Part shown: piece after piece, positions 3,876-60,992 of the stretch
Layout: every line of letters starts with the position of its first letter
Numbering within the stretch: the first letter of the stretch is position 1
Virus record (IMG/VR): IMGVR_UViG_3300021387_000463
Span: 107,001-171,000 of that record
Source: a virus
Lineage: Duplodnaviria > Heunggongvirae > Uroviricota > Caudoviricetes
Length of the DNA: 64,000 nt
Strand: one strand, 5' to 3'
Program-made: the position numbers and the translations under genes
Notes under the pieces: generated by a model
The model's input: only the letters and a program-made list of their open reading frames with translations
Told to the model about the DNA's origin: nothing
The model's database searches: none

Positions 3876-3909
3876 CAAAAAGGAATCTTGCAGCAATAGG
3901 TAAGACATC

Positions 3910-3979
3910 AGACATGTAGCTCAATGGTTAGAGCCTTGGATTTTACCAAGAGATTAGGGTTCGACTCCCTACGTATCTT
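3910..3979 (+). tRNA. tRNA-like with 6-nt anticodon loop auuuua (UUU or UUA)
   Basis: canonical D arm ta-gctc-aatggtta-gagc and T arm taggg/ttcgact/cccta; anticodon stem cttgg/ccaag encloses only 6 nt; acceptor has 1 mismatch. Confidence 0.35.
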
Positions 3980-4007
3980 TGTTTAAAAGGATTCCGATTT
4001 TTAACAT

Positions 4008-4360: not shown

Positions 4361-4487
4361 GGAAACATACAGCAACTATTAAAGGTATAGCATTAAACTG
4401 ATAATTTAAGGGTCGTTGGTTCGAGTCCAACTCACGCTACCAAGGTTGGCGTGATAGCTAAGATGGATAGAATGTTTCCGATTTTTT
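4361..4487 (+). ncRNA. permuted/split tRNA-Ile(GAT) unit inside a TACAGCAA element
   Basis: 5' ggaaacatacagcaa (4361-4375); D-stem 3' strand tagc; anticodon arm ttaaa/ctgataa/tttaa; variable gggtc; T arm gttgg/ttcgagt/ccaac; acceptor 3' tcacgct-a-CCA (4431-4441); 5-nt linker aggtt; acceptor 5' ggcgtga (4447-4453) + ta + D-stem 5' gcta; 3' aatgtttcc gattttttt (4468-4487). No matching 5' acceptor upstream in normal order. Confidence 0.4.
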
Positions 4488-4616: not shown

Positions 4617-5600
4617 TTGGCTGATTTTTATGCGAGTTCGACTCTATATTATATAGAAATATGTAATTATATGGATGAATTAACAAAAAAAATCAGAGAA
4701 TTAAAATTTGAAAAGGGGTATTCAAATAGTCAAATTTCAAAAGAATTGGGAGTAACAATAGAAAAAGCAAAAAGAGTTACTTGTAAAAGATATGATGAAA
4801 CATTAAAAAAGAAGGAAATTAGAAAAAATGCTGAAAAAGAATTTGTTGATTTAGTAAAACGATATTTACCATTGTCTAATTCTTTAAATCATTTATGTAA
4901 CAATTTAGGGTTGAGAGGTGTAGACGGATATTATAAGAAACTAAAACGAATAATATCAGAATATAATCTATCTACTGAACATTTTGGTACTATTAAAATT
5001 AGCCGATTTGGTGTAGCTAGAAACAAAGTAACCGCAATGACGGACGAAGAATTTTTTGTAAAAGGTTCTAAACGTAGCGGAGACTCAATAATTAAAAGAT
5101 TAATTGAAGGTGAATATAAAGAATATAAATGTGAAAATTGTGGTATAAGTGAGTGGGATGGAAAACCATTGAGGCTGCAAGTCCACCATATAAACGGAGA
5201 CCATAACGACAATAGAGTTGAGAACATTCAGTTATTATGCCCAAATTGTCATGCACAAACTGACACATATGCAAGGCATAACACTACTAAGAATGGTGGG
5301 TTTGTTGTTAAAAACATTGAAGAGCTAAAAGATAGTATTAATTATGTCAAGCCAAAATATTGCAAAAAATGTGGCAAAGAAATAACTAATGGCAGTAATG
5401 AATATTGTTCTCATGAATGTGCTCAAAAAGCCTCTAGAAGATTTGAAGTATCATCAGCACAGTTGATAGAAGACTTCAAAGAACTTAAATCATTCACAGC
5501 AGTAGGTAGAAAATATAATGTTAGCGATAATGCAATAAGAAGAAGAGTTAAAAAACTTGGAGTATATGAAGAAGTAAGACAATTTATCACTCCAAGGTAA
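4617..5600 (+). CDS. HNH homing endonuclease with zinc ribbon and C-terminal HTH
   Basis: HHINGDHNDNRVENIQLLCPNCH HNH motif; CKKCGKEITNGSNEYCSHEC zinc ribbon; C-terminal YNVSDNAIRRRVKKLGV. Confidence 0.7.
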   Translation: MADFYASSTLYYIEICNYMDELTKKIRELKFEKGYSNSQISKELGVTIEKAKRVTCKRYDETLKKKEIRKNAEKEFVDLVKRYLPLSNSLNHLCNNLGLRGVDGYYKKLKRIISEYNLSTEHFGTIKISRFGVARNKVTAMTDEEFFVKGSKRSGDSIIKRLIEGEYKEYKCENCGISEWDGKPLRLQVHHINGDHNDNRVENIQLLCPNCHAQTDTYARHNTTKNGGFVVKNIEELKDSINYVKPKYCKKCGKEITNGSNEYCSHECAQKASRRFEVSSAQLIEDFKELKSFTAVGRKYNVSDNAIRRRVKKLGVYEEVRQFITPR

Positions 5601-5975: not shown

Positions 5976-6069
5976 GGGAACTTACAGCAAGGTTAAGAGG
6001 ATAATTTTTTATTTGTTCAAAATGAAAATAGATAGTTCGAGCCTATCAAATGATAGTTCCCTTTTTTTT
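5976..6069. repeat. TACAGCAA element copy with internal T-arm-like hairpin
   Basis: gggaacttacagcaa (5976-5990); hairpin gatag/ttcgagc/ctatc (6031-6047); complementary agttccc (6055-6061) + ttttttttt. Confidence 0.4.
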
Positions 6070-7403: not shown

Positions 7404-7476
7404 CTTTTGAAAATAATTTGTCTTTCGAGACACATTTTTTGCTCTTTTGAAATATTTATATGTAAAGAGCTATATT

Positions 7477-8169
7477 ATGGAAATTGATATAAAAAGTGTT
7501 TTAGATAAATCAAAAACAATAAGTGATATTGCTAGAATAATTTTTGGAAAGCCTAACTATACAAACAGAGAAAAATGCAAAAAAATTCTTTCTGAGTATG
7601 GAATTGATTGGGAAAAATGGTTAGAAGAAAAAAAGATTAAGCCTAAGAAGTTTTGTCTTAATTGTGGGAAGGAAATAATTAATGGCGATTCTAGAAAAAA
7701 ATTTTGCAATTCATCTTGTGCAGCATCTTATAACAATTTAGGTATCGCTAGAAACTATAAAGGTGGTAAGAGAAAGGATGAAAAATCTTATTGCTTAAAC
7801 TGTGGTAAAGAAATAAAACGAGGTAAATTTTGTAATAATACTTGTCGTGCAGAATATAATGCAAAACAATATATTGAACGTTGGAAAAGAGGTGAAGAAA
7901 GTGGGTTAAAGGGTAAGTATGGCATTGCTTCTGCTGTTAGGCATTATATTTTTGAGAAAAACGAAAACAAATGTGAAATTTGTGGAAAAAGTTATGTAAA
8001 TCCGTATACTGGGTTGTCTGTTCTTCAAATTCATCATAAGGATGGCGATTGTACAAATAATAGAGAGGAAAACTTACAGTTATTATGTCCAACACATCAT
8101 GCAATGACCGAGAATTTTGGCAGTAGAAATCCAAATGCCACAAGAAAGGATAATAGAATGAGATATTAA
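7477..8169 (+). CDS. HNH homing endonuclease with two zinc ribbons
   Basis: HHKDGDCTNNREENLQLLCPTHH; CLNCGKEIINGDSRKKFCNSSC and CLNCGKEIKRGKFCNNTC; start moved to the internal Met after the promoter-like region. Confidence 0.65.
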   Translation: MEIDIKSVLDKSKTISDIARIIFGKPNYTNREKCKKILSEYGIDWEKWLEEKKIKPKKFCLNCGKEIINGDSRKKFCNSSCAASYNNLGIARNYKGGKRKDEKSYCLNCGKEIKRGKFCNNTCRAEYNAKQYIERWKRGEESGLKGKYGIASAVRHYIFEKNENKCEICGKSYVNPYTGLSVLQIHHKDGDCTNNREENLQLLCPTHHAMTENFGSRNPNATRKDNRMRY

Positions 8170-8406: not shown

Positions 8407-8604
8407 ATGGAAAAATGTATGCGTTGTGGGCATGAACTAATTATCGGAGGTAATTTCATGCTCAGTGACTTCAACGGAGAGGATTTAGCTGAAGATGATG
8501 ACGCAATGGTAACAAATGCTCATTGTCCACACTGCGGAGCTAGTTATGAGATATATGATACTCCTGAATCTGAAAAGAAGAATTATCCATATTGGAGTAA
8601 CTAG
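8407..8604 (+). CDS. small zinc-ribbon protein (65 aa)
   Basis: MEKCMRCGHE...CPHCGAS; the N-terminal part of ORF 8284-8604 overlaps a tRNA-like gene and was trimmed. Confidence 0.45.
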   Translation: MEKCMRCGHELIIGGNFMLSDFNGEDLAEDDDAMVTNAHCPHCGASYEIYDTPESEKKNYPYWSN

Positions 8605-8679
8605 CGGTGTATCCCCTCTGCCTTATACGCTGTTGAAAGGGTAATTGGTCACATGTGGGTTCAAGCCCCACCATCGCCA
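8603..8679 (+). tRNA. tRNA-like (good acceptor/T arm, non-canonical body)
   Basis: acceptor agcggtg/catcgcc (6/7 paired); T arm gtggg/ttcaagc/cccac; no clean D or anticodon arm found. Confidence 0.3.
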
Positions 8680-8722
8680 CGAAAAGAAAGTTCTTTCGTC
8701 TGACGGTTTACGTCAATAACAA

Positions 8723-8869
8723 GGAAACATCCAGCAAATACAGAGTTGTTATTAGAAATTGCTACCGAAACGGTATGTGGGTTCGACTCCCACACGTCTA
8801 TCTTAACGAGGGCGTTGGTGAAATTGGTATACACGGCTATTGTAGAACAAAATGTTTCCGAATTTTTTT
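8723..8869. repeat. TACAGCAA element copy with internal T-arm hairpin
   Basis: ggaaacatccagcaa (8723-8737); internal gtggg/ttcgact/cccac; complementary atgtttcc (8852-8859) + gaatttttttat. Confidence 0.4.
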
Positions 8870-10095: not shown

Positions 10096-10274
10096 CGAAT
10101 GCGGTTCGAGTCCGCTTCAGTGACCGAGATTAGGTAAATTCAACAAAGCAGTGTTCGATTCTTGCTTATCTCCACACTATGAGTTTCCAATGTTAACTCG
10201 TGGGGATTATGGTTAAGTTGAGGTCAAAAAAACGGTGTATCTAGGATGCCCAGTTGCGCCTAGCTGCATCAGTA

Positions 10275-10430
10275 GGAACGTACAGCAACATTTACTTATT
10301 TAAAAGATTTTGTATTAGATTCGTAAATGAGGATAAGAGAAGCACTAAATCATAATTGCGAGGCACTTATCCATGCTCTTCGGAGCAAATGTCTAGTCAT
10401 GACAGTAAATTGACCGTTCCTTTTTCTTTT
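10275..10430. repeat. TACAGCAA element copy (no tRNA body)
   Basis: ggaacgtacagcaa (10275-10288) ... complementary cgttcc (10415-10420) + tttttctttt; interior has the UUCG hairpin gctc-ttcg-gagc. Confidence 0.35.
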
Positions 10431-12414: not shown

Positions 12415-12506
12415 GGATGCACGCTGCGAAGAGAAACATAGCAATATGCCTCTACGGAGAACGACGTGGAAATGCGATTCCGCAGGTTCGAATCCTGCTG
12501 CATCCA
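12415..12506 (+). tRNA. type-II-length tRNA-like (92 nt), anticodon unresolved
   Basis: perfect acceptor ggatgca/tgcatcc and T arm gcagg/ttcgaat/cctgc; body contains gaaacatagcaa, a TACAGCAA-motif variant. Confidence 0.35.
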
Positions 12507-12612
12507 CAAGTTTGTCTAGCTAGATTTGATATCGGTTGAAACTAGATGCCACACTTAAAGGTTTCTCTATAGTCCAAGGTAGAGAGTGAAAATGAATTGC
12601 TTGGGCGCATAT

Positions 12613-15951: not shown

Positions 15952-16088
15952 GGGTACACACAGCAAGTATAAATTTACACTTCAAACAGACTGTCAATTT
16001 GTGTAACGTGGGTTCGATTCCCACCCCCTCCGCAAAGAGAATTAAATAAACTGGAGGGGTTGAAATGTTGGTTTTATGTACCCTTTTA
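15952..16088 (+). ncRNA. permuted/split tRNA-Asp(GTC) unit inside a TACAGCAA element
   Basis: 5' gggtacacacagcaa (15952-15966); D-stem 3' strand ttca; anticodon arm acaga/ctgtcaa/tttgt; T arm gtggg/ttcgatt/cccac; acceptor 3' cccctcc-g (16025-16032); 20-nt linker; acceptor 5' ggagggg (16053-16059) + D-stem 5' tgaa; complementary tgtaccc (16076-16082) + ttttat. Confidence 0.4.
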
Positions 16089-16166: not shown

Positions 16167-16293
16167 GGTGACGTAGCTCAGTCGGTAGAGCACTAAAAAA
16201 TCAACGTGTTGCCTCGTGTGCGCAACCCACAGCAAATATTATGATGAATGGCTGTTAACCAAGGGGTCTGTGGTTCGAGTCCACACGTCACCG
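16167..16293 (+). tRNA. oversized tRNA-like gene (127 nt) with ~75-nt insertion after the D arm
   Basis: perfect acceptor ggtgacg/cgtcacc; canonical D arm ta-gctc-agtcggta-gagc and T arm tgtgg/ttcgagt/ccaca; insertion carries gcgcaac-CCACAGCAA and gctgttaacc. Confidence 0.35.
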
Positions 16294-18006: not shown

Positions 18007-18669
18007 ATGATAGCTGCTTTTGATACATATTATTATAATGGATATTCTTATACTGTAGCTGGAGTATTTAAGTCATGGAATGATAAAGATATTGCTTACT
18101 ATGCTACTAGTAAGAGGATGTGTATTGACGCAGAATACAAACCAGGAGAACTATATAAGCGTGAGCTTCCATGCATTATGCAATGTTTGGCATTATTACC
18201 ACTTAAGGATATTACGCTTATTATGGTAGATGGTTTTGTATGGCTTTCTGAGGATGGTAAAACCTTAACGAAGGGTTTGGGTGCTCACCTTCAAGATGCA
18301 ATCTTTAAGAAATATGGTGAGAAAATTACTGTTGTTGGTGTCGCAAAGAACAGATACCATGTAAATATACCAGATTGCTATGATATAGAGCGTGGTTTGG
18401 AATCAGCAAAGCCATTGTTTGTAACATGTAGTGAACACTGTCTTGCAGAACATTATTCAAACATGGTCAAGATTATGTATGGTGATTATAGAATACCAAA
18501 AATCTTGAAAGATGTAGACACTAGGACAAGAGAACTTGGGCATGAACATTCTGAGGAGATAGAAGCAGAACTTGAAAAAGAATATAACTCCAAACCCATA
18601 GATATATCAATTGGTGATTTTGATGAATTTATGGCAACTTGTGAAAAAAATGGTTTTAAATATAGATAG
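18007..18669 (+). CDS. nfi: endonuclease V (deoxyinosine 3' endonuclease; also cuts inosine-containing RNA)
   Basis: RELP, MVDGFVW, GLGAHL and VVGVAKNR align with E. coli Nfi blocks REYP, FVDGHGI, GVASHFG and IGVAKKR. Confidence 0.6.
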   Translation: MIAAFDTYYYNGYSYTVAGVFKSWNDKDIAYYATSKRMCIDAEYKPGELYKRELPCIMQCLALLPLKDITLIMVDGFVWLSEDGKTLTKGLGAHLQDAIFKKYGEKITVVGVAKNRYHVNIPDCYDIERGLESAKPLFVTCSEHCLAEHYSNMVKIMYGDYRIPKILKDVDTRTRELGHEHSEEIEAELEKEYNSKPIDISIGDFDEFMATCEKNGFKYR

Positions 18670-20589: not shown

Positions 20590-21003
20590 TAATGCACAGC
20601 TCAGTGACTTATACAAAATTAAGGGTAATATATTGAATGACATTTTGAATCTTAATGAGCAACTTAGCAAAAAGAAATTAGCCCTTTCAATAGTCAATAG
20701 CAGAATTAAGAAATTAGAAGAGAAATGAAAAATTGTTAAAAGATTTGGAAATCTCAAAAATTATATATATCTTTGCATTGTTAAACAATTTAATATCAAA
20801 TATTATGTTAGAATTTATTATCGGTTTAGTTGGTGGTTGGTTCGCCTACAAGTATAAGGATAAGGTGGGGCTGTAACCAAAAGGTATAGTGGGACAAGAG
20901 AACTGTAATAGTGGAATCTGAAACATAGCGAACAACGTGCCATAAGAAGCCTCAGGTCTTGTTGAAAGGGCGAATCACACTTTAAAAACAAACGCCCCCA
21001 AAT

Positions 21004-21087
21004 GCTTGAAGACATATGAATAGGTAACATCTACGAGACCCACAAGGGTTGACGGAATAGTAGGTTCAAATCCTACCGCAAGCACCA
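21004..21087 (+). pseudogene. tRNA 3' fragment ending in encoded CCA (T arm gtagg/ttcaaat/cctac, acceptor 3' cgcaagc-a-cca); 5' half degenerate
   Basis: no complementary acceptor 5' strand (gcttgaa pairs only 5/7); CCA is directly followed by the TACAGCAA 5' motif. Confidence 0.3.
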
Positions 21088-21088
21088 A

Positions 21089-21230
21089 GGAAACAGACAG
21101 CAATGGTTATTTTTTTAATAAGCCTTGTAAGCAGTGGGTCATGGGTTCGAATCCCATCGAGGGGTGTAAGCTCCTTGTAGCTCAGTCTGGTCTAGAGCAA
21201 CTTAAAATGTTAAAAACGTTTCCGATTTTT
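21089..21230 (+). ncRNA. permuted/split tRNA-like unit inside a TACAGCAA element
   Basis: 5' ggaaacagacagcaa; T arm atggg/ttcgaat/cccat; acceptor 3' cgagggg-t; 5-nt linker gtaag; acceptor 5' ctccttg (all 7 pair, 2 G-U) + complete D arm ta-gctc-agtctggtcta-gagc; 3' acgtttcc gattttt. Confidence 0.35.
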
Positions 21231-21248
21231 AATTAAAACGAAATAACA

Positions 21249-21809
21249 ATGGCAGTAGGTGTAATTATCGCAAGGCTTCAGCCAATACACAAGGGACACC
21301 TTGAGTTGGTCAGACAAGCTCTTAATGAGAATGACGAGGTTCTTATCCTTGTTGGTTCAGCAGACAAACTGAATAAGCGTAACCCAATTCCTATCGCAAT
21401 GCGTTTGGATTTGGCAAAGAGAGCAATAACTGAGGAGTTTGGTGAGGGCGCTGGCAAAGTTAAAGTAATGCCACTCAATGACCTTACAGATGAATCAGAT
21501 AATTCTCATGATTGGGGATTTTATCTCTACAGCCATATAGTTGGAATCACTAAGTCACTTGAATTTACCATTTATTATTCAGATGGATTTGAGATTATCA
21601 TGCAGTGGTTTCCTCCATTCATTACAAGAGACTTCGTTTCTTTTAAATTGAATGCTAGAGGTGCAATCCACAACAACTTGTCTGCAACAAAGGTAAGACA
21701 GATGATTCTCAAGGGTGATGAAAATGCTCTCGCAGAGGCAGTACCAACTTGTGTTGCTGAAAATGCGGTAATATTGAAACATTTCATTGAAGCATTTCAA
21801 GATGTATGA
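21249..21809 (+). CDS. nadM: nicotinamide/nicotinate mononucleotide adenylyltransferase (NadM-type NMNAT)
   Basis: ARLQPIHKGHLELV = (H/T)xGH nucleotidyltransferase motif in the archaeal/phage NMNAT context GRFQPxHKGH. Confidence 0.6.
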   Translation: MAVGVIIARLQPIHKGHLELVRQALNENDEVLILVGSADKLNKRNPIPIAMRLDLAKRAITEEFGEGAGKVKVMPLNDLTDESDNSHDWGFYLYSHIVGITKSLEFTIYYSDGFEIIMQWFPPFITRDFVSFKLNARGAIHNNLSATKVRQMILKGDENALAEAVPTCVAENAVILKHFIEAFQDV

Positions 21810-22237: not shown

Positions 22238-22780
22238 CAAAACATAATGGGCTTGAATGGTATAGAACGTTATGCGTCTGGTAAAGGACAAGCAGTGGGC
22301 ATACACTTCAAATAGCAAAAAAAACAAACGCAGAGAACGTAGATTCTCCTGCTTATGAGTACGCTATAGCTGCGTAAGCATGAGCCGAGAGGCTAGGCTC
22401 TTAGGAACAGAACATCCTAGCAAACTTTTTTTAGCTTCGTGCTAGATGGTGGAATCGGTGACTCTAGTCATCCCCCAAGTTTTCCTTGTTTTCTCAAAAT
22501 AAGGTGGCGGATTTTCGACAGCAATGTCAACTTTCCAATTTAAGCTTGTATAATCCTTTATGGGATGGTAATTGTGACGAGGGTTCGAATCCCTCCAGGT
22601 CCACTTAATAATCAGTCAGGGTTGGATGATGAAGTAAACTTTTACAGTAAAGTTATGCTATATTAGGATAAAAGTCATGTATTAATCTGTATAACATACA
22701 TGGAAGGGAATCTTTCATAAGTACATTGAAGAGGTTCGTGTAGCTGATTATTTTATAAAAGAAAAAAAGTTCTTTGAAAA

Positions 22781-23088: not shown

Positions 23089-23332
23089 TGAAAAAAAGTT
23101 CCTAAAAAATTTGGAATTCTCGAAAATTATCTATATCTTTGCAAAGTGAAAAGAAATAAATGAGGAAACTAACAGCAAACATTTAAACATCAAACTGTAA
23201 ATTTGAACAACGTTTAAAAAGTTTCCGTTTTATTATATAACATAGCGGCAGAGTGAAACAGATTACACGCTAGGCTCATAACCTAGAAACACCAAGTGCG
23301 ACTCTTGCGTGCCGCCACTTGATTTGGAAGAT

Positions 23333-23617: not shown

Positions 23618-24440
23618 AACATTGTAGGCTTCGGCTGAAAATGAGGAGTTTGGCTAGCTTTCGTAGCCAAATGAAGGATAATCCAGTGATGGGACTAAAT
23701 GTGATGTGAAATTGACCATAGTAGCATTGCAGATATGTAGGGGCAACCCTATGTATTTCACTGAAAAGCATATGGCACGGTCTACGCTGGGGGTAACACC
23801 CTAGGCGTAGGTTCTCAAGGGCTGAATGTCTTTGAGTGAGTGGTAACACAATAGATTGCCATATGGAACTCGATGCAATAGTCACCAGTTGGCGTGTTGG
23901 GTTCAGTTATATGCTAGTCTCAAGTTGAAATGCTTGAGAACCGTAAGGCTGATAGTATGTAATAGCAATTGGACTTGTGGTGAGTCTTTGTAGGGAGGCG
24001 ATTTCGTGGGTCGTGCTCAAAAGGCACGAATGCGATGGGTCGCACCTCGTCTTCCAATGGTCGTGCAAATTTCCAAAATTTGATTTGAAATATGGTTCAA
24101 ATGTTTATTTAGCAAAAGTGTGCGACACTAGGCAGCTAAAATGCACTTATCCTTCTGCAATATGAAGGGGTTGGGGACTCGCAAGGAATCCAACAAGAGA
24201 GTAAAAGTACTCGTCTGAGTCAACAGGAGGCATCCTGTGAATCCGCAAGAGCTTGGCGAAGAACTGAAATCTATGATGCTGTACCGAAAGGTTTAAACTA
24301 GTAAGTGTTTGGTTGTTTTCGCAAAACCTCCGTGCATGGTGTCTACGGCTATCGTAAGGTAGCGTGTGAACAGCAACGTCCAACCGTTGTGAAATGACAT
24401 CTACAACAAGACAATGTTCTCAGTCTTTTGTTTTTACATA

Positions 24441-24564
24441 GGGAGTTAGCTTAATGGTCAGAGTAATTTTGTTGCGATTTAAGCTACAACACAGTCTCGA
24501 CTTCGGAACAGATTGATGCTTTAACTGATAATGAAAAAATGGTGGTTCGAGTCCATCACTCCCT
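24441..24564 (+). tRNA. oversized tRNA-like gene (124 nt)
   Basis: acceptor gggagtt/cactccc (6/7); T arm ggtgg/ttcgagt/ccatc; body contains ctgataa (Ile-type loop) and a UUCG hairpin. Confidence 0.3.
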
Positions 24565-24725
24565 GCGTACCGTTTTGGGGCACTTTTTGAGTAAACAAAG
24601 TGTTAAACTTTGGCACTAGATAGCTACTAGGTGTTATGGGTTGGAAAGTTTGAATCCCTTGGGGGTTTGTAGAATGTAATGTTTTTAACCAACTGTTTTT
24701 GATACGGCTTAATATTTAATTATAT

Positions 24726-25616: not shown

Positions 25617-25677
25617 AGGAAGCTTACAGCAATGTAAAAAGACCGCAACTCTTGGCCTAAGACTAGCTTCCGATTTT
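25617..25677. repeat. TACAGCAA element, minimal copy (no tRNA body)
   Basis: ggaagcttacagcaa ... complementary agcttcc + gattttt. Confidence 0.4.
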
Positions 25678-27141: not shown

Positions 27142-27226
27142 GGGCATATGGCTGAGTGGTCGATAGCGGCAGTCTCTAAAACTGTTATGGCGAAAGTCAT
27201 CGTGGGTTCGAATCCTACTATGCTCA
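27142..27226 (+). tRNA. amber suppressor tRNA, anticodon CTA, type II (Ser/Leu/Tyr-like body)
   Basis: acceptor gggcata/tatgctc all paired; D arm tg-gctg-agtggtcgata-gcgg; anticodon stem gcagt/actgt with loop ctctaaa at the expected position; long variable arm; T arm gtggg/ttcgaat/cctac. Confidence 0.5.
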
Positions 27227-27454
27227 CTACGGCTGGTGTATCCATAGTGGATGCTGAAATAAGTGAGACAGCGCAAGCCATGTAAGAAGTGGCAGATGAA
27301 GCAGCAATGCGGTGCGAGGATTAGTCCCTTGCCCTAGTTCCTTGATGGTTAAGAGGATACCTTCATGGTTGATACAGGTAAACCTAATTTACTATTATGA
27401 TAGAATATCTCAAAAAATTAGAAGCAACGATGTGCAAGCATAAATGGGAGGATT

Positions 27455-31598: not shown

Positions 31599-32432
31599 AT
31601 GAAGAAGTTTTTAACAATGTTTTCATTCGTCATTATGTTGACGATGAGTATGACAATGACCTCTTGTATTGGCTGTACCACAGTTAATGCTGACGAGGAG
31701 ACAGTTCTGATTGACAAGCCTTGGTTCTTGGGTCATGGTGGCGTACAGAATGAGCCAGTTGAGACTGGTCTTGAGTGGATTTGGTGGTCTACTGACACAG
31801 AGACTTTCAAGATTGTACCTTTCAAGCATCAAGTAGACATGGATGACTTGTTCAGTGATGACAATACTCCGTTGGACTTCCATACCATTATCATCACACA
31901 GATTCAGAAGGGTAAGTCACCAATTCTCTTGCAGAACTACGGTACTGATTGGTTCAACACAAACCTTTACAACTACTACTGTAATCTTGTGCGAGACCAT
32001 ATCTCACAGCACAGTCCCTTTGACCTCATGTCCAATCGAGCGATTCTGAATGAGATTGATACAAAGGTACTCAAGCAGATGCGGAGCTATGTAGCAGAGT
32101 TGTCCAAGGAGAAGGAGTTCCCTGTAACGATTCGTCAGGTAACGATTGGTAAGGCAATTCCTAATAAGGAGCAGCTTGCGGAAATGAATAAGACAGCGAA
32201 GGCAGTGCAAGCAAAGCAGACTCAAGAGCGACAGGTTGAGGTTGAGTTAGCTCGTGAGAAAGCTGAACGTCAGAGGGCAAAGGCTGATAAGGCTTATCGA
32301 GAGGAACTTGGTCTTAGTACGCAAGACTTCATTAGTCTGAAGTGGATTGAGACTATTGCAGCTAAGAATGGCGCAAATATTGATGTGATGGTTGGTGGTG
32401 GTTCTACCCCAATGTGGAACATCAAGCATTAA
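31599..32432 (+). CDS. lipoprotein (277 aa) with C-terminal coiled/charged region
   Basis: signal peptide + lipobox MTSC; ...QVEVELAREKAERQRAKADKAYREE. Confidence 0.5.
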   Translation: MKKFLTMFSFVIMLTMSMTMTSCIGCTTVNADEETVLIDKPWFLGHGGVQNEPVETGLEWIWWSTDTETFKIVPFKHQVDMDDLFSDDNTPLDFHTIIITQIQKGKSPILLQNYGTDWFNTNLYNYYCNLVRDHISQHSPFDLMSNRAILNEIDTKVLKQMRSYVAELSKEKEFPVTIRQVTIGKAIPNKEQLAEMNKTAKAVQAKQTQERQVEVELAREKAERQRAKADKAYREELGLSTQDFISLKWIETIAAKNGANIDVMVGGGSTPMWNIKH

Positions 32433-33069: not shown

Positions 33070-33208
33070 GTGCGGTTCGTCTAGTGGTTTAGGACAACGT
33101 TTAAAAAAGTTTTTTAACGTTTCCGTTAGGAAATAGACAGCAGATGTATTATTGAAAAATTATGCATTCCAAGCCGTAAACAGAGGTTCGAATCCTTTAC
33201 CGCACTCT
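33070..33208 (+). tRNA. oversized tRNA-like gene (139 nt), paralog of 32641 with ~85-nt insertion
   Basis: perfect acceptor gtgcggt/accgcac; same D arm tc-gtc-tagtggtttag-gac; insertion has the palindrome aacgtttaaaaaagttttttaacgtt and hairpin tttcc-gtta-ggaaa followed by TAGACAGCAG. Confidence 0.3.
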
Positions 33209-40021: not shown

Positions 40022-40141
40022 TTAGGGGATAGTGTAATGGTAACACGCTGTAATTTCCGTTACCTTTGAGGTAACATTACAGCAATCATTAGGAAAATAG
40101 CTTTTGGTGCCAGTATTGGAGGTTCGAATCCTTCTCCCCTA
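40022..40141 (+). tRNA. oversized tRNA-Gln(TTG)-like gene (120 nt) with insertions flanking the anticodon arm
   Basis: perfect acceptor tagggga/tccccta; D arm ta-gtg-taatggtaa-cac; anticodon arm gttac/ctttgag/gtaac; preceded by gtaatttccg and followed by ATTACAGCAA; T arm ggagg/ttcgaat/ccttc. Confidence 0.35.
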
Positions 40142-40148
40142 GCAAACA

Positions 40149-40234
40149 TGGCGAGGTGCCAGAGTGGACAATTGGGGCACTCTCATAAGGTGTTAGTTTC
40201 GGCTACCGTTGGTTCGAATCCAACCCTCGCTACC
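40149..40234 (+). tRNA. type-II tRNA with anticodon CAT and encoded CCA
   Basis: acceptor ggcgagg/cctcgct; D arm tg-cca-gagtggacaat-tgg; anticodon stem gcact/ggtgt with loop ctcataa; variable arm; T arm gttgg/ttcgaat/ccaac; a-cca. Confidence 0.4.
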
Positions 40235-40235
40235 A

Positions 40236-40344
40236 AGGGAACTTACAGCAAGTATAACTCGTGAAGGAATGGTCTACTTGAAAGTCTAAAAAACTTTTGC
40301 GCAGTTTGCGCTTGTGGGTTCGAATCCCACCGAAAATCAGTTCC
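40236..40344. repeat. TACAGCAA element copy abutting the CCA end; internal T-arm hairpin
   Basis: gggaacttacagcaa (40236-40250); gtggg/ttcgaat/cccac; complementary agttccc (40338-40344). Confidence 0.35.
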
Positions 40345-40859
40345 CTAACTTATACTTAACCATAAGGTTTTAAGTTTTTGTATTATTTTATTTTTATCGA
40401 AAGGAGCATCCAGCAATGGGTGCTCTGATTTTTTATGCAACTTGATGTAAATCAAAGGTCTGATATAAATCAAGATTGAGCGTGATTTTTATGTTTTTTC
40501 TTGGAATATTTTGGGTATTTGAGTTTTTTTTAATATCTTTGCATCGTTAATCAAAAACAGTGTGTTCGCACACAACTTAAATTGACATAGGTCAAATAGT
40601 GGTTAGTTTTTCATAAAAAATGCATTTTGAATGATTGACATTGTGGCGTTTGGTTATATATATTAAATGAAGTGCAAGACCAAATGTATGAGCAACGGCT
40701 TGGGAAATCAATAGTCTAGGCTAATTTGTAAGTAAGTGCATTGTGGTTGGGTATCGGTTAAAATTGGAGGAAGTAAGTGTACCGATTTCGGCCACAATTA
40801 ATTAAAAGTGAGAAGTAAGTAAAATAAGTAAGTGTAAAATTAAAGAAAGGGAAATTATT

Positions 40860-41513: not shown

Positions 41514-42077
41514 ATGGATAAGAAATTGGTTAACCAGCCTTGTTATGACAAAGAAGGCAATTTTATCGGATGGTTTAGCCGTTCAATGGCAGCAGCAATC
41601 TTCATCTATTGTAGAGACAAAGATGGCGATTGGTGCGTTCTTGCGTCAGAGCGAGGCGAGGAAGCTGCTGACTTTAGAGGTTTTTGGAATTGCACATGCG
41701 GTTACTTGGATTTTGGGGAAACCACCAAGGATTGCGCAATGAGGGAGCTGTATGAGGAAACTGGACTACTCATAGATGAAAAGCTAGTCAAGTTTGTGGC
41801 TTATGAGGATAGTCCAGAGGCGAATAAGCAGAATGTTACATTCCGTTTTGCAGCATTCATCGATGACGCAATTACAGACGAATTTACCTTCTCTAAAAAG
41901 CACAATGAGGGTAAGGAAGTAGGAGAAATCAAATGGATTAAGATATCAGACGTGGACAAATACATGTGGGCATTTAACCATGACAAAAGAATAAAAGAGA
42001 TTTTTGCAACTAGGGAAAAGAAACTTTCTTGGGTTGACAAAGTAAAACGTTTCATTGGCAAATTTCTTAAAAAATGA
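41514..42077 (+). CDS. Nudix hydrolase (ADP-ribose pyrophosphatase-like)
   Basis: Nudix box GYLDFGETTKDCAMRELYEETGL. Confidence 0.65.
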   Translation: MDKKLVNQPCYDKEGNFIGWFSRSMAAAIFIYCRDKDGDWCVLASERGEEAADFRGFWNCTCGYLDFGETTKDCAMRELYEETGLLIDEKLVKFVAYEDSPEANKQNVTFRFAAFIDDAITDEFTFSKKHNEGKEVGEIKWIKISDVDKYMWAFNHDKRIKEIFATREKKLSWVDKVKRFIGKFLKK

Positions 42078-53327: not shown

Positions 53328-54803
53328 ATGAATGTTTATAATTTTAAGAAAATTGAGAAATGTTATGTGTTTGGAAACATAGACAGAAACATGGATAGGT
53401 TTATCAAAACCATAACATCTAATATTTCAAAATTTAAAAAAGAAGAGCATCCAAAGGAAATCGAAAGACAAGAGAGACTAAAAAAGCGTGAAGCAGATAG
53501 GCTAGCTAATGATGGGCTTGGTGGAGGTCTTGGTTTACATAATCCATATGACGCTCATTTACAACAGCGTAGAGTTAATAGACGTGACGCTGGTATGGAC
53601 CTAGACCCTTCACCATTTGCATGGAATATTGGGGATAGTGATAAGAAAATGTTTACTAGAAAGGTAGATTCAAGTTACAATGACAGTGTAATCATCGTTA
53701 GTGGTAACTGTGGTATTGGAAATAAGAGCAAGAAGTATTACGAGGAAACATTTAGTAAACTAGATAAGATTCTTGGTGATAACAATTGCTTTGTCTTATT
53801 CGTAAGAGGTAACAACGATAACCCTTCTATCTTCAACAACATGGAAATTGACTTTGAACATATTAAGGCAATTCCAGATTATTCAGTGGTTGCAATGAAG
53901 ACATTCAACTGTCTCTGTATCGGTGGTAGTGTCTCAATGGATAAGGAGTGGAAACTAGCTCAAGAAGAACTTTATGGAAAGAAACTCTATTGGGAGGATG
54001 AAGCCCCTAAATATCATGAAAAGCAACTGAAGGAAATACTTGATGCCTATAACATCAATTGTATTATTACAAGCACTTGTCCGAGCTTTGCATATCCTGG
54101 AACTAATGCTTTTAAGAAAAGCAAGTGGTTCTATCGTGATAAGAAAATTGTTTCTGAATTTTCAAAGGAGAGAAAAATCATGGACAAAATATATGAGCAG
54201 ATTATGGACTCTGAATCAAAACCATATATGTGGATTTATGGCAGATTTAAGATGTATCACACAGACAAGATTAACGATATTGTTTTCTGTTCATTGGCTT
54301 CTTATGGAATGATACAAGTTAACTCTCAACTGAGTGCTTTCTTCGGTGTTGATACATCCAAGACACTTGAGACCAATGCGCACACATTCGACCATATTCT
54401 CAATGAAGAACTAAACGGTGCTGCAAGACTAAGACCACATGAAATCGAAGATGAGGCGATGGAAATTGGTGATGAAGACATTGCAGAAGGTGATGATGAG
54501 GAAATGGCAAACGATGTAGCTGAAGAGGTTGAGGCTGCTCCAAGAGAGAATGTAGCTGCTACTGCAAATACAGTTGAAGAAGCAAGAGAAACACTTGACC
54601 GAATGATTCAAGAAATAAGAGCTGCTGACAACTACACATATGCCGATTATGCTACAATATTTAACCAAGCAAGGAATATGACAGTGGGGGGCAATGACAT
54701 ATACACAATAAGGGCACAAGCTCCTCAAGAACTAAGAGCTGTTACACTCGAAGATATAGACCGAGTTGCACCAGTCATGGGAAACGGAACTAGAAATGGC
54801 TAA
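53328..54803 (+). CDS. hypothetical protein (491 aa), weak phosphoesterase-like features, acidic C-terminus
   Basis: SGNCGIGNKS and VRGNNDNP only loosely resemble P-loop / GNHD motifs. Confidence 0.45.
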   Translation: MNVYNFKKIEKCYVFGNIDRNMDRFIKTITSNISKFKKEEHPKEIERQERLKKREADRLANDGLGGGLGLHNPYDAHLQQRRVNRRDAGMDLDPSPFAWNIGDSDKKMFTRKVDSSYNDSVIIVSGNCGIGNKSKKYYEETFSKLDKILGDNNCFVLFVRGNNDNPSIFNNMEIDFEHIKAIPDYSVVAMKTFNCLCIGGSVSMDKEWKLAQEELYGKKLYWEDEAPKYHEKQLKEILDAYNINCIITSTCPSFAYPGTNAFKKSKWFYRDKKIVSEFSKERKIMDKIYEQIMDSESKPYMWIYGRFKMYHTDKINDIVFCSLASYGMIQVNSQLSAFFGVDTSKTLETNAHTFDHILNEELNGAARLRPHEIEDEAMEIGDEDIAEGDDEEMANDVAEEVEAAPRENVAATANTVEEARETLDRMIQEIRAADNYTYADYATIFNQARNMTVGGNDIYTIRAQAPQELRAVTLEDIDRVAPVMGNGTRNG

Positions 54804-57186: not shown

Positions 57187-58581
57187 ATGGAAATATTCAA
57201 AGACGAAAGAATAAAGAAAGTCTTAGCGAAGATTCAGAATGCCATTAAACTGACTGCCTTTGAGGGGCATGTTTATGTGGTTGGTGGTGCGGTGAGAGAC
57301 GCACTGTTGAACCTTCCAGTCAAGGACTTGGATTTCGTGGTAGAGATACCTAATGGTGGAGTAATGCTTGCCCATCTTCTTGCTTCAAAGGAGAAGTGTT
57401 ATGTGATGGGTAAGAATCCAGTAATATTCGAGACCTATGGTACTGCAAAGCTGAATCTCTTTAAGGATGAAGACCTCAAAGACTTTGACCTTGAATTCGT
57501 TCAGACTAGAAAGGAGCAGTATCACAAGGAGAGCAGAAACCCAGATACAGTGTTTGGTTCAATCGAGGAAGATGCAGCACGTAGGGACTTAACCATTAAC
57601 TCATTGTACTACAATGTTACTGATGGTAAGTTGTACGATTTCAACCAAGGTGTTGATGACTTGGTTAACCAAGTGATTAAGACCCCAACTGACCCAGATG
57701 TTATCTTTGACGATGACCCACTACGTATCTTGAGAGTTATCAGATTCTCTTGCAGATATGGCTGGGGTATCGAGAAGAACACTTGGTTGGGCATGGTTAA
57801 GAATGCACATCGTATCAAGATTATCTCACAAGAGAGAATCACTGATGAGATTTCCAAGATTATAACTGGTCCAAACGCTTCTGTTGGTATCCGCAAGATG
57901 TTGTTCTGTGGCATCTTGAATAGGGTAATGCCAGACATCTACGACTTAACCAACGCATATGAATCAAAGAATCCAATGCTTACCTCATTTGACCACACAA
58001 TGTTAGTTCTTGATAAGGTACAGCCTTATATTGAGAATAGACTTGCTGCATTGTTTCATGATGTAGGTAGAATCGCAACTGAGGGAAATAGGGGTATCTC
58101 TCAAGATTCATTCAGTGCTGATGTTGCTAGCTGTGACTTGAAAGCGATGAAATTCCCAAAGAATATTATCAATTCTGTTGAGAACGCAATCAAATATCAC
58201 AGATTCTTCAGAAACTACGCTGATGGCACTGTTCCACCAGACAAGAAGATAAGAAAGTTTATCAACGAGTGTGGTGACAACATTGGAAACGTGGTTGACT
58301 TGATGAATGCTAACAACTTGTATCAGACCTACGATAAGAAGAAGAGACAAGTATTGGATATTCTGAATAGAATTGAAGAGCTAGATGAGCTTGAAGAGGC
58401 TAAGAACGTTAAGCTGCCTATCGATGGAAAAGATTTAATGGCAGAATTTAATCTTAAAAGTGGCCCTCAGATTGGTATACTCATGGAACACTTGAAAGAG
58501 GCTTATTTCGAGAATCCGAAGATTACCAAGGAAGAGTGCTTCAAGTTGGTTGAGGATAAGATTAAAGTCTTGGCAGTCTAA
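57187..58581 (+). CDS. cca: CCA-adding enzyme (tRNA nucleotidyltransferase, class II) with HD domain
   Basis: VVGGAVRDALLNLPVKDLDFVV head-domain motif; RDLTINSLYY; HD motif LFHDVGR. Confidence 0.7.
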   Translation: MEIFKDERIKKVLAKIQNAIKLTAFEGHVYVVGGAVRDALLNLPVKDLDFVVEIPNGGVMLAHLLASKEKCYVMGKNPVIFETYGTAKLNLFKDEDLKDFDLEFVQTRKEQYHKESRNPDTVFGSIEEDAARRDLTINSLYYNVTDGKLYDFNQGVDDLVNQVIKTPTDPDVIFDDDPLRILRVIRFSCRYGWGIEKNTWLGMVKNAHRIKIISQERITDEISKIITGPNASVGIRKMLFCGILNRVMPDIYDLTNAYESKNPMLTSFDHTMLVLDKVQPYIENRLAALFHDVGRIATEGNRGISQDSFSADVASCDLKAMKFPKNIINSVENAIKYHRFFRNYADGTVPPDKKIRKFINECGDNIGNVVDLMNANNLYQTYDKKKRQVLDILNRIEELDELEEAKNVKLPIDGKDLMAEFNLKSGPQIGILMEHLKEAYFENPKITKEECFKLVEDKIKVLAV

Positions 58582-58992: not shown

Positions 58993-59568
58993 ATGGGAAG
59001 AAAAATTTTAATTATCGTTGATGGTCAGTATGACTTTCTTGAGGGTGGTGCTCTTGCAGTAGAAGGTGGTAAAGATGCTATGACCAATCTCACCGAGTTC
59101 ATTGAGAAGCATTACAAGGAGTATGATGGCATATTCTTAACTGCTGATTGGCATCCAATCACTCACTGTTCATTCAAGGATAATGGTGGTATCTGGCCAA
59201 CTCACTGCGTACAGTTCTCACATGGTGCTGCAATATATCAGCCAATTCTTGATGTGTTAGACGATTTAAAGGTTGACTACGATGTTCTTACGAAGGGCTG
59301 TGACGAAGACCATGAGGAGTATTCTATCTTCAAGAATGTTACCTCAGAGGCATATCTCAAAGCCATGAACAAACACAACGAGATTGGTGTTGTTGACATT
59401 TGTGGTATCGCTGGAGACTACTGTGTGCTTGATACCATCAAGGATGGGCTTATGGAATTTCCGAATGCCGAGTTCCATGTTATCAAGGAGTGTGTTGCAT
59501 CAATCGATGGTGGCGCAACATTGAACAAGTTTATTGACGATAACGAAAGGGTTTTATGTCACGAATAG
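58993..59568 (+). CDS. pncA: isochorismatase-family hydrolase, nicotinamidase (PncA)-like
   Basis: ILIIVDGQYDF, catalytic Cys context DICGIAGDYCVLDT. Confidence 0.55.
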   Translation: MGRKILIIVDGQYDFLEGGALAVEGGKDAMTNLTEFIEKHYKEYDGIFLTADWHPITHCSFKDNGGIWPTHCVQFSHGAAIYQPILDVLDDLKVDYDVLTKGCDEDHEEYSIFKNVTSEAYLKAMNKHNEIGVVDICGIAGDYCVLDTIKDGLMEFPNAEFHVIKECVASIDGGATLNKFIDDNERVLCHE

Positions 59569-60515: not shown

Positions 60516-60992
60516 ATGGAGAAATTGACGATAGATGTATTCAGACATTTTAGGTTTTTCTTGAAAAAGAATAAACAGTATGACTTGTTCATGCGAAATT
60601 TCAGAAGACAGCCATTTCAGATTTATCACGTATTTGATTCGAAGATTCCGAATTACATACAGATAATGATGAAAGATTCTGTAGATGGGATTGGAAATCG
60701 ATACTTCAAGGAATTCGGTGCAATGCATCTTATCTTTAGGTCATTTAATTGGTCTGGAGATTGTTGCACAACCAAAACAAATTCGAAGCATTGGGCTACG
60801 GTTGGTCTTAAATGGGCGTTATATTGCATAAGGCATAACATCGACATATGCACAGATGAACGGCTTGGGAGACTTATAGAGTATTGGAATTCTAATGGAT
60901 GGATTAATATTAGCAAGCTATCCTTTGAAGATAAAATAATAGTAAATCAGTTAAAACGAAAATATAATAATTATGGGGTTACAAGTGTATGA
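60516..60992 (+). CDS. hypothetical protein (158 aa)
   Basis: promoter-like tcgtatctttaca upstream. Confidence 0.5.
   Translation: MEKLTIDVFRHFRFFLKKNKQYDLFMRNFRRQPFQIYHVFDSKIPNYIQIMMKDSVDGIGNRYFKEFGAMHLIFRSFNWSGDCCTTKTNSKHWATVGLKWALYCIRHNIDICTDERLGRLIEYWNSNGWINISKLSFEDKIIVNQLKRKYNNYGVTSV

Follow-up and report, generated by a model that had tools for sequence, protein, structure and literature searches.

Does a phage genome carry tRNA genes whose two halves lie in reversed order, and can such a gene still specify a complete tRNA? This question is raised by positions 21004-21230 (+ strand) of the window, the whole 64,000-nt stretch of viral DNA analysed here, where a reading from the sequence alone had described a tRNA 3' fragment with CCA followed by a permuted tRNA-like unit. 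To our knowledge, no permuted tRNA gene had been known outside algae and archaea, and both permuted and split tRNA genes have been regarded as an oddity of a few members of these groups, tied to the BHB/splicing-endonuclease system. With roughly even confidence, we read window positions 21089-21223 (+) as a circularly permuted tRNA-Thr(UGU) gene of a huge bacteriophage.

The tRNA halves of this Thr unit are reversed, with the 3' half first and then the 5' half, and the split falls inside the anticodon stem. Along the + strand the order is the 5' strand of a helix termed P1, AGA, CAGCAA, an A/U-rich stretch, tRNA positions 30-73, a 5-nt linker, tRNA positions 1-29, a second A/U-rich stretch, the 3' strand of P1 and a U run. 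P1 is a 6-bp helix that closes the unit, its 5' strand (GGAAAC, 21089-21094) beginning 1 nt past the upstream CCA and pairing with its 3' strand (GUUUCC, 21218-21223). The 5' strand is followed by a junction AGA and the CAGCAA motif (21095-21103, with the motif at 21098-21103), and the sequence at 21089-21103, which comes after a single A (21088) following the upstream element, reads GGAAACAGACAGCAA. The A/U-rich 3' module part (Y', 21104-21121), which ends at tRNA position 30, probably pairs with the A/U-rich 5' module part (X, 21203-21217), and across homologues the lengths of Y' (10-19 nt) and X (8-17 nt) change together. The tRNA 3' portion (positions 30-73, 21122-21165) opens with the anticodon-arm portion 30-43 (21122-21135), consisting of GC (positions 30-31), the anticodon loop CUUGUAA (21124-21130, with UGU at 21126-21128) and GCAGU (positions 39-43), and continues between this loop and the T arm with the variable loop GGGUC; the T arm itself (ATGGG-TTCGAAT-CCCAT, 21141-21157), the acceptor 3' strand CGAGGGG (21158-21164) and the discriminator U (21165) complete it. 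The acceptor-closing linker GUAAG (21166-21170) leads into the tRNA 5' portion (positions 1-29, 21171-21202), which comprises the acceptor 5' strand CTCCTTG (21171-21177; 7/7 pairs, two of them G-U), TA (21178-21179), the D arm GCTC-AGTCTGGTCTA-GAGC (21180-21198), A26 (21199) and ACU (positions 27-29, 21200-21202), such that the T arm and acceptor 3' strand (21141-21164) precede the acceptor 5' strand and D arm (21171-21198) on one strand. The GAUUUUU tail after P1 (21224-21230), common to most window units, is a possible transcript end; a generic terminator scan made no call at this tail because the stem encloses 120 nt. Downstream of the unit, an ORF for a cytidylyltransferase/NMNAT-like protein (PF01467, Pfam) begins at 21249.

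Every feature quoted in the sequence-only reading was present upon direct inspection of the sequence, including the acceptor pairing with its two G-U pairs, the D arm behind it and the end of the unit (GTTTCC, then GATTTTT) ahead of the NMNAT gene, and its claim of a permuted unit is borne out for 21089-21223, which groups with an Ile unit (4361-4479) and an Asp unit (15952-16083) of the window. Its account of the anticodon region has to be revised. No clean anticodon arm had been recognised, the break had been placed between the D arm and the anticodon region and the copy had been thought possibly degenerate, whereas the arm is in fact intact but split, with positions 27-29 at 21200-21202 and positions 30-43 at 21122-21135, the break lies inside the anticodon stem at 29/30, and the re-formed arm (ACUGC-CUUGUAA-GCAGU, anticodon UGU) is perfect.

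When 21202 was joined to 21122, giving a junction that reads AGAGCAACU|GCCUUGUAAGC, and the acceptor linker was opened, the product was a 76-nt tRNA-Thr(UGU) that ARAGORN folds as a perfect cloverleaf. Un-permuting yielded valid tRNAs in 21/21 units tested (ARAGORN), the similarly tested unit L005 reaching up to 84% overall identity to ordinary tRNA-Thr genes, and un-permuting or module removal also gave tRNAs from the window Ile unit and from the normal-order Gly (33070), Gln (40023) and Asn (16167) genes. In at least 120 ordinary tRNA-Thr genes the spliced core GAGC-A-ACNGN-NUUGUAA-NCNGU-NGGUC occurs without interruption. The junction is 29/30 in Thr, Gly, Met, Glu and Val units from independent phages, and the Ile and Asp units are broken at about 26/27. 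Within the 64-kb window ARAGORN overlooked at least five permuted or interrupted tRNA genes; two intact ordinary tRNA-Thr(UGU) genes are also encoded there, which counts against the Thr unit as a source of tRNA, and tRNA-Gln(UUG) occurs only as a module-containing gene, which counts in favour of maturation. Since standard tRNA finders miss such genes, phage tRNA repertoires, and the inferences on genetic code and codon adaptation drawn from them, are incomplete.

The acceptor ends differ among the isotype families. A C follows the discriminator (N-C-A-A) in 40/42 ordinary tRNA genes of the window, with the full CCA encoded in two, and a signature of the N-C-A-A type was found in 20/30 acceptor linkers of permuted units from isotype families other than Thr, whilst the Ile permuted unit encodes ACCA. 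This trailer signature argues that the linkers of these other families are processed as tRNA 3' trailers. Linkers measure 16-22 nt in the Gly, Met, Glu, Val and Asp families and 5-7 nt in the Thr family, where they lack C74, and pairs 1:72 and 2:71 of the Thr family are non-canonical (C-G and U-G in the window unit) compared with G-C and C-G in ordinary tRNA-Thr. The short linker without C74 and the odd acceptor end make for a weaker case for aminoacylation of the Thr copy.

Every helix of the structure, including the split anticodon helix, is backed by covariation. In an alignment of 16 units (A1), 27 pairs were 100% paired, a figure that is partly by construction since the sequences were chosen for pairing, and 14 pairs showed double changes. 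The covariation score was 0.588 vs 0.162 in shuffles, with 0/500 shuffles reaching 0.588, and pairing in slid controls was only 34-47%. Compensatory changes across independent phage contigs occurred in 7/7 acceptor pairs and 3/3 split-helix pairs, and RNAalifold independently predicted P1, the T arm, the acceptor hairpin and the D arm. This covariation of the acceptor strands and of the split anticodon helix from phage to phage ties the two halves to each other, and the suggestion that they might derive from two separate, independently decayed pseudogenes fails. At least nine Thr homologues from different phages are conserved as a unit, substitutions in their acceptor, T and split anticodon helices compensating one another, and an independent covariance-model match (L035:7970-8101, 121 bits) follows the same rule with AUG/CGU. 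In three other phage contigs, L023, L020 and L024, the Thr unit occurs in syntenic position, ahead of a tRNA and tmRNA; in the window a normal one-piece tmRNA lies at 22249-22606. A scan for permuted cores that was blind to the module found 35, of which 30 had CAGCAR within 75 nt upstream, against a chance expectation of ~4%, and recurrence of the permuted architecture is far above chance. The same pattern searched for in 185,579 bacterial and archaeal genomes gave 120 matches, approximately the chance level; GTTTCC closes six of these and one (L172) looks genuine. Among GenBank phages there were no close relatives and only generic tRNA matches, and the GenBank phage search gave one distant protein match to a 635-kb uncultured phage.

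P1 and CAGCAA recur together as a module, with ~14 copies in the window in addition to those in dozens of huge-phage contigs. The module flanks the permuted Ile, Asp and Thr tRNAs of the window and forms a contiguous insert of 49-64 nt in its normal-order Asn, Gly and Gln genes, where insertion is at 28/29-29/30 and P1 is closed by a loop; overall, insertion sites range from 26/27 to 32/33 and the structured module is about 50-65 nt long. CAGCAA (rarely CAGCAG, UAGCAA or CAGCAC) is kept in all units, whilst P1 varies by covariation (GGGAAC/GUUCCC, GGAAUC/GAUUCC, GGGUAC/GUACCC, GGAAGC/GCUUCC, GUAAGC/GCUUAC, AAAAAC/GUUUUU and others). A D-stem-like pairing of CAGC with a downstream GUUG worked in a single small unit and is not general. 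Some modules enclose just an anticodon-arm-like hairpin (23164-23226 and 2412-2489) or just a T arm (5976-6061 and 40237-40345), and one has nothing recognisable inside (25618-25671); such copies without a complete tRNA count against the splicing reading, being at least as compatible with an independent function of the module as with an intron. We found no publication that describes the permuted tRNA-Thr unit or its P1-CAGCAA module. We tentatively suggest, at somewhat less than even confidence, that huge phages possess an undescribed tRNA intervening element, neither group I nor BHB, which also exists in a natural permuted intron-exon form, and that some of their tRNAs mature via a circle. 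Such an arrangement would mean that some phage tRNAs, tRNA-Thr included, pass through a circular intermediate and, if true, that a phage-encoded or RNA-catalysed cleavage-ligation pathway is at work in the bacterial cell.

The most likely maturation pathway, as deduced from the arrangement of the unit, would comprise module removal, ligation at 29|30 and opening of the acceptor end. P1 and the A/U-rich pairing would draw the transcript ends together, so that the anticodon stem re-forms with a discontinuity at 29/30. The module halves would then be cut away and the 29|30 nick, held in duplex by strand 39-43, sealed to give a circular tRNA, the candidate sealing enzyme being the phage RNA ligase encoded at 60973-61908 (PF09414, Pfam), possibly acting after end-healing. 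RNase P and 3' trimming would open the 5-nt acceptor linker, although ligation and linker opening could take place in the opposite sequence, and CCA would be added last, putatively by the phage CCA-adding enzyme encoded at 57187-58581 (Pfam). Neither PF01974 nor RtcB domains were detected in the 38 window ORFs run through Pfam, which include all 18 ORFs of at least 250 aa in the 64-kb window, and typing of the RNA ligase, the metallophosphoesterase-like protein and the EndoV-like protein (18007-18669) against PDB and NCBIfam gave no informative matches.

Permuted tRNA genes have been described in Cyanidioschyzon merolae, some green algae and Thermofilum pendens (PMC3978253, PMC3218864). As in these algal and archaeal genes, the 3' half of the phage units precedes the 5' half on one strand with a short acceptor-end linker, leader and trailer pair, intron-containing and permuted forms coexist within one genome, and breaks or introns also fall at non-canonical sites within or near the anticodon stem. 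The algal and archaeal type depends on a BHB and the archaeal/eukaryal splicing endonuclease, whereas the phage leader and trailer form P1 and CAGCAA in a phage context that encodes tmRNA, with no splicing endonuclease among the 38 Pfam-searched ORFs. Inspection of the junctions of 16 units revealed no 3-nt bulges 4 bp apart, and in place of a BHB the leader and trailer form P1, the CAGCAA bulge and a probable A/U-rich pairing.

The module resembles group I introns of bacterial and phage tRNA genes in its insertion in the anticodon region, and PIE constructs in the order 3' intron half, exon, 5' intron half, which would give a circular exon. Group I introns are at least 200 nt long, with a conserved P3-P9 core and a terminal G. 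The module, in contrast, is far shorter (49-64 nt in the normal-order genes), has no P3-P9 core and no Rfam intron match, ends in A or U rather than G just ahead of the exon, and is inserted in a stem and not in a loop. HDV-like theta ribozymes adjoin phage tRNAs and are compact nested double pseudoknots in which the P1 partner follows shortly downstream (PMC10879173). The Thr unit is likewise a small structured RNA that begins at most 1 nt past the CCA end of a tRNA-like phage gene, and its phage lineage has an amber-suppressor tRNA, but the theta fold is incompatible with it: its P1 partner is 120 nt away (21218-21223), across the whole tRNA; there was no partner for GGAAACA within the next ~100 nt and no HDV-family Rfam match at E <= 10. 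In two-piece tmRNA (RF04321), too, the acceptor 5' strand comes after the T arm, the acceptor 3' strand and CCA, yet a permuted tmRNA is rejected by a score of 10.3 bits vs a threshold of 47 and by the lack of a tag reading frame and of pseudoknots. An apparent frame ending in UAAUAA in the window copy has no counterpart in L020 or L023, and inspection revealed no reading frame consistent among the homologues. Hammerhead, twister and hatchet ribozymes were rejected, there being no conserved core sequences and no Rfam matches.

A serious alternative to splicing, which we nevertheless rate as less likely, is that the module is retained and the unit is a tRNA mimic of Y-RNA-like architecture, in which P1, the CAGCAA bulge and the 3' U run form a protein-binding handle and the permuted tRNA body serves as effector or bait, sister units carrying a T arm or an anticodon arm alone; such an RNA might lure away host nucleases that attack tRNAs or tether an enzyme that binds tRNA. 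The layout is indeed that of Y RNAs, with an end-formed terminal stem, a 5'-strand motif, a variable inner module and a U tail (10.1101/312249; PMC4201824), and the Thr unit and its homologues give weak YrlA matches of 31-40 bits. Modules with partial or no tRNA content, conservation of CAGCAA by sequence and of P1 by covariation, as expected of a protein-binding site, and the short closed linkers and non-canonical acceptor end of the Thr family point the same way. A mimic would, however, have no need for an exact 3 + 2 = 5-bp anticodon stem and a 7-nt loop with U33 and R37, nor for anticodons that suit the isotype and recreate the cores of genuine tRNA-Thr, Gly, Met and others, and it would leave the ordinary tRNA ends and trailers of the module-bearing normal-order genes, and the 3'-trailer signature in the linkers of most families, unaccounted for. 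Moreover, given established ribosome-tRNA contacts, an arm retained at 29/30 or 26/27 would block decoding, such that these genes would be dead weight, yet they are conserved. The narrower proposal of a true YrlA family member partnering a phage or host Ro60/Rsr is largely refuted, and we give it very little weight. YrlA has been described as resembling a circularly permuted tRNA; its terminal stem encloses a T arm, an acceptor-like hairpin and a D arm, and in M. smegmatis it is cut by RNase P and receives CCA (PMC4201824; 10.1101/312249). The Thr unit shares the end-formed terminal stem around a T arm, closed acceptor-like hairpin and D arm in identical order, and RF02553 is its best Rfam match (21111-21220, 31.9 bits, E = 5e-5 locally). 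That score nevertheless compares with a gathering threshold of 69, the terminal-stem columns are mispaired in the alignment and the motif GNCGAAN0-1G (PMC4201824) is missing, the 5' strand of the Thr unit reading GGAAACAGACAGCAAUGG. YrlA lacks an anticodon loop, whereas the Thr unit has a complete, isotype-specific anticodon arm with an intact loop as well as normal-order sister genes, and neither an rsr gene beside the unit nor any TROVE/Ro60 domain was found among the 38 Pfam-searched ORFs of the 64-kb window.

The P1-CAGCAA...P1'-U-run module could also be primarily transcript punctuation, a terminator or processing signal with the tRNA parts as passengers, which seems to us improbable. A (G)AUUUUU ends nearly every window unit, many units lie just ahead of ORFs or the next tRNA, and minimal versions of 54-63 nt resemble hairpins with a U tract; against this, many IMG/VR homologues have no U run after the P1 3' strand, inside normal-order tRNA genes the module has a loop-closed P1 and lacks the U run, and the supposed passengers are under clear structural selection. 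Least credible, at a level comparable to that of a true YrlA, is non-functional debris, be it what remained after an interrupted tRNA gene was duplicated in tandem or a pair of decayed tRNA pseudogenes that abut by chance. Wherever copies of one tRNA lie in tandem, a T arm and acceptor 3' strand are automatically followed, across a spacer, by a pairing acceptor 5' strand and a D arm; the covariance model does detect such tandem junctions (model positions 33-112, 30-49 bits), and tandem duplication, which we count in favour of debris, is the accepted origin of permuted tRNA genes. Decay is nonetheless at odds with the compensatory substitutions in at least nine homologues conserved as a unit, with the constant bounding of the unit by P1 and its partner strand, with the synteny in L023, L020 and L024 and with flanks that hold no remnants of the missing halves; nor are the homologues recent copies of one element, because their stems are 40-60% divergent.

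Dozens of phage permuted or interrupted tRNA genes built on a different module would imply either a hitherto unknown RNA cutting-and-joining pathway or a new family of tRNA-mimicking RNPs. If the former is true, such a pathway in infected bacteria would provide a role for the RNA ligases and CCA-adding enzymes of huge phages. The natural permuted intron-exon layout is also of possible interest for circular-RNA engineering.

The element directly upstream of the Thr unit is a separate tRNA-like minihelix of ~84 nt (21004-21087, +) ending in ACCA. The sequence-only reading had taken its 3' end for a bare fragment with no usable 5' half; the T arm (GTAGG-TTCAAAT-CCTAC, 21060-21076), the acceptor 3' strand CGCAAGC (21077-21083), A (21084) and encoded CCA (21085-21087) are all present as described, but the element also has its own 5' strand, GCTTG (21004-21008). 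Its middle is not tRNA-like and contains an ACAA-capped hairpin (ACCC-ACAA-GGGU, ~21039-21050), it has neither a D arm nor an anticodon arm, and it was called by neither ARAGORN nor Rfam. A search of the window for an alternative 5' half for the T arm at 21060-21087 gave no candidate with both a matching acceptor strand and a D arm that was convincing in its tRNA context. The minihelix is conserved, with homologues at the equivalent location in L023, L020 and L024, and its acceptor pairs at 5/7 positions in the window, 6/7 in L023 and 7/7 in both L020 and L024.

The segment at 21089-21223 (+) is very probably a permuted tRNA-Thr(UGU) gene that is broken at 29/30, framed by a conserved module (the 6-bp closing helix P1, here GGAAAC/GUUUCC, with CAGCAA and A/U-rich segments) and part of a large phage family. 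Each element listed in the sequence-only reading was found at its coordinates, and neither ARAGORN nor Rfam at gathering thresholds gave a call within 21004-21230. That reading had recognised no clean anticodon arm and had tentatively placed the break between the D arm and the anticodon region, but the arm is present in split form. The D arm is followed by A26 and then ACU (21199-21202), and GC-CUUGUAA-GCAGU lies at 21122-21135, 5' of the variable loop GGGUC; ACU plus GC pair fully with GCAGU around a canonical 7-nt loop (C32, U33, UGU, A37, A38), which places the break between 29 and 30, in the 5' strand of the anticodon stem. ARAGORN called the un-permuted, joined unit as tRNA-Thr(UGU), with no flaw in the cloverleaf. 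Treating units in this way yielded valid tRNAs in 21/21 tested, and the 29/30 junction is shared by Thr, Gly(UCC), Met(CAU), Glu(UUC) and Val(UAC) units of different phages. The spliced sequence aligns well to the window's own tRNA-Thr genes, and the spliced core GAGC-A-ACNGN-NUUGUAA-NCNGU-NGGUC is contiguous in at least 120 ordinary tRNA-Thr genes from IMG/VR, to which a unit tested likewise, that of phage contig L005, has at most 84% overall identity. Judged by its sequence, the product looks like a real tRNA-Thr.

Covariation was assessed using an alignment of 16 units, in which the sequences had been chosen for pairing beforehand and the 27 pairs of the proposed structure were 100% paired, 14 of them with changes on both sides. 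The covariation score was 0.588, compared with 0.162 ± 0.020 in shuffles (reached by 0/500), and slid controls paired at only 34-47%. Covariation extends to each of the three split-helix pairs (C-G, U-A, A-U, G-U; G-C, A-U; U-A, G-C, C-G) and to 7/7 pairs of the acceptor stem. Unaffected by the selection for pairing, RNAalifold also predicted P1, the T arm, the acceptor hairpin and the D arm, and a covariance model recovered new full-length members, for example L035:7970-8101 in another phage contig (121 bits; split helix AUG/CGU). A scan for permuted cores that was blind to the module, and likewise unaffected by that selection, found 35, with CAGCAR no more than 75 nt upstream in 30. The alternative of two adjacent genes predicts a match to part of the model, as seen at junctions of tandem ordinary tRNAs, which match its middle only (positions 33-112, 30-49 bits), and the Thr unit differs from that signature.

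The module recurs across the window, where 13 T arms lie outside called tRNAs and many of these have GGRAAC-NNN-CAGCAA upstream, its first six bases pairing with a GTTYCC that lies 3' of the T arm and usually precedes (G)ATTTTT. Once the T-arm requirement was removed, approximately 14 modules were found. P1 shows compensatory variants (GGAAAC/GUUUCC, GGGAAC/GUUCCC, GGAAUC/GAUUCC, GGGUAC/GUACCC, GGAAGC/GCUUCC and AGGAAC/GUUCCU; in other phages GUAAGC/GCUUAC, AAAAAC/GUUUUU or GGAUGG/CCAUCC), whilst CAGCAA is invariant across units. In IMG/VR the pattern GGAAAC-N3-CAGCAA-N25-55-GGTTCGA gave 68 matches in 55 loci, mostly on 100-520-kb contigs, and 58 of the 68 are closed by GTTTCC. Matches in 596 Gb of bacterial and archaeal genomes were about as numerous as expected by chance, with only 6/120 closed and one looking genuine, so the family is essentially phage-specific. 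The sole convincing member outside the viral collection is a permuted unit in L172, a locus in genome_contigs (~1306-1430, +), and its acceptor linker encodes ACCA (GGACGGC-ACCA-UACUAA-GCCGUCU).

In three normal-order tRNA genes of the window the module is an uninterrupted insert at 28/29-29/30, with P1 closed by a small loop: tRNA-Asn(GUU) (16167-16293; insert 16195-16248, 54 nt), tRNA-Gly(UCC) (33070-33206; insert 33100-33163, 64 nt) and tRNA-Gln(UUG) (40023-40142; insert 40051-40099, 49 nt). Deleting the insert gave valid tRNAs in each case; all three genes were missed by ARAGORN, the Rfam tRNA model detected only the Asn gene (45 bits), and the window has no intact copy of tRNA-Gln(UUG). 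Opening P1 and closing the acceptor in this design gives, by circular permutation, the layout of the permuted units. Two other permuted units, Ile (4361-4479) and Asp (15952-16083), have the whole anticodon arm in the 5' piece and are thus broken at ~26/27, and in another Gly family the break falls at 31/32 or 32/33; the module therefore occupies several positions around the anticodon stem. A tRNA at 24440-24565 (Ile GAU-like loop CUGAUAA) has an insert of ~50 nt, a hairpin followed by CAGUCU in place of CAGCAA, which may be a divergent relative of the module.

Among known systems, the closest analogue in logic is the permuted tRNA genes of algae and archaea, which have the same topology and, like the window, combine intron-containing and permuted versions; those genes require BHB motifs, not seen at the junctions of the phage units, and a splicing endonuclease, not seen among the window ORFs scanned. 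A permissive Rfam scan gave one notable match, to the Y RNA-like YrlA (RF02553) at 21111-21220 (31.9 bits against a threshold of 69), resting on the order T arm, closed acceptor hairpin and D arm, with the terminal-stem columns mispaired. The closed-acceptor topology is common to YrlA and the Thr unit; the two differ in defining motif, gene neighbourhood and anticodon arm, and membership fails on score, the GNCGAAN0-1G motif and rsr linkage. Group I introns, theta ribozymes and permuted tmRNA were ruled out by size, fold and Rfam. In the literature searched, where journal coverage was partial and an earlier description is possible, bacteriophages were nowhere described as carrying permuted tRNA genes or the P1-CAGCAA module.

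We propose that the module would be removed from the transcript of the Thr unit, 29|30 ligated and the acceptor opened to give a working tRNA, a route to which we assign an even chance. The main rival, possible but rather unlikely in our estimate, is a tRNA mimic in which the module is retained. It is a serious one because the overall layout is that of Y RNAs (PMC4201824; 10.1101/312249): the terminal stem bears a conserved motif in its 5' strand, the inner module varies, and a U tail follows. It is also favoured by modules of the window with incomplete or no tRNA content: a Tyr-like anticodon hairpin (GUA) only at 23164-23226, a Pro-like one (UGG) at 2412-2489, a T arm plus anticodon-like hairpin at 5976-6061 and 40237-40345, no recognisable content at 25618-25671, a normal-order tRNA-like sequence with a 6-nt anticodon loop at 3882-3995, and a module lacking a complete permuted tRNA at 10274-10421. 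A lone T arm is also among the contents noted for this set. Permuted units with a long, class II-like variable arm (8723-8859 and 12430-12568; also L003, L026, L015, L051 and L052) yielded no reconstructed clean anticodon arm, and some have an AAUUGC strand complementary to both module CAGCAAUU and exon GCAAUU, a complementarity that suggests alternative pairings.

C directly follows the discriminator in 40/42 ordinary tRNA genes of the window, typically as N-C-A-A-A, and only 2/42 encode full CCA; this lineage-specific signature fits dependence on the phage CCA-adding enzyme (57187-58581). N-C-A also occurs in 20/30 acceptor linkers of permuted Gly, Met, Glu, Val and Asp units, and the Ile linker encodes ACCA, which suggests that such linkers undergo the processing of tRNA 3' trailers. 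The Thr family differs in having short linkers, of 5-7 nt counted after the discriminator (UGUAAG here), and no C74; its 1:72 pair is variable, and 2:71 is U-G in four of the Thr homologues inspected by hand, this unit among them; ordinary tRNA-Thr has G1-C72 and C2-G71. The window also encodes an RNA ligase (60973-61908; PF09414), a metallophosphoesterase-like protein (53328-54803) and an EndoV-like protein (18007-18669); searches gave no finer typing of these or of the CCA-adding enzyme, and no splicing endonuclease, RtcB or Ro60 domain was detected among the window ORFs scanned.

The tRNA-like minihelix at 21004-21087 (+) is an element separate from the permuted unit. Its T arm had been read as lacking a usable 5' half, but GCUUG (21004-21008) pairs with CAAGC in the 3' strand of the acceptor; the middle has an ACAA-capped hairpin but neither D nor anticodon arm, and the element ends in ACCA, 1 nt 5' of P1. 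Homologues occupy the same place in contigs L023 (6/7 acceptor pairs, ACCA), L020 and L024 (both 7/7, GCUA), and the consensus fold of the four sequences is weak. Similar minihelices (acceptor and T arm, no D or anticodon arm) at 8603-8680 and 12415-12506 lie just 5' of, or overlap, P1-CAGCAA modules, and the genuine tRNA-Met at 40150-40235 abuts module 40237-40345 via CCA-A-GG in the same manner. Further 5', non-coding 20866-21003 is conserved with L023 (e.g. GTGGGACAAGAGAAC..GTAATAGT..CTTGTTGAAAGGG), has no Rfam match and may be another structured RNA; its CTGTTGAAAGGG motif recurs at 8633-8644, and L023, L020 and L024 have an extra conserved block of ~190 nt upstream that the window lacks.

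The source is a huge phage; the window is low in GC (37%) and carries 44 ARAGORN tRNA genes and a one-piece tmRNA (22249-22606), all on the + strand. We found no close relatives among GenBank phages; several window elements have near-identical copies in IMG/VR contigs of ~410 kb, one of which, L023, is syntenic around the Thr unit. A GOLLD-like RNA at 23993-24426 (+; 73.6 bits, gathering 150, E = 4e-17) adjoins the insert-containing tRNA 24440-24565, an arrangement kept in L023 (1330-1751, -; 74.8 bits). An amber-suppressor tRNA (CUA) at 27142-27227 (+), labelled 'Pyl' by ARAGORN, hints at TAG recoding, so ORF calls with table 11 may be truncated. NAD-salvage genes are spread over the window (21249-21809, 41514-42077, 58993-59568 and 62647-63840), comprising an NMNAT-like cytidylyltransferase, a NUDIX protein, an isochorismatase/nicotinamidase-like protein and NAPRTase, a set similar to the NAD+ systems that jumbo phages of the gastrointestinal tract are reported to have (PMC11662467). 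A Band-7/SPFH gene (31599-32432) adjoins tRNA genes, and band-7-associated tRNA and RtcB systems are mentioned in 10.1101/312249. Within the tRNA array, the EndoV-like gene is accompanied by three free-standing endonuclease-like ORFs (DUF559, HNH and HNH_3) at 1525-2400, 4617-5600 and 7447-8169.
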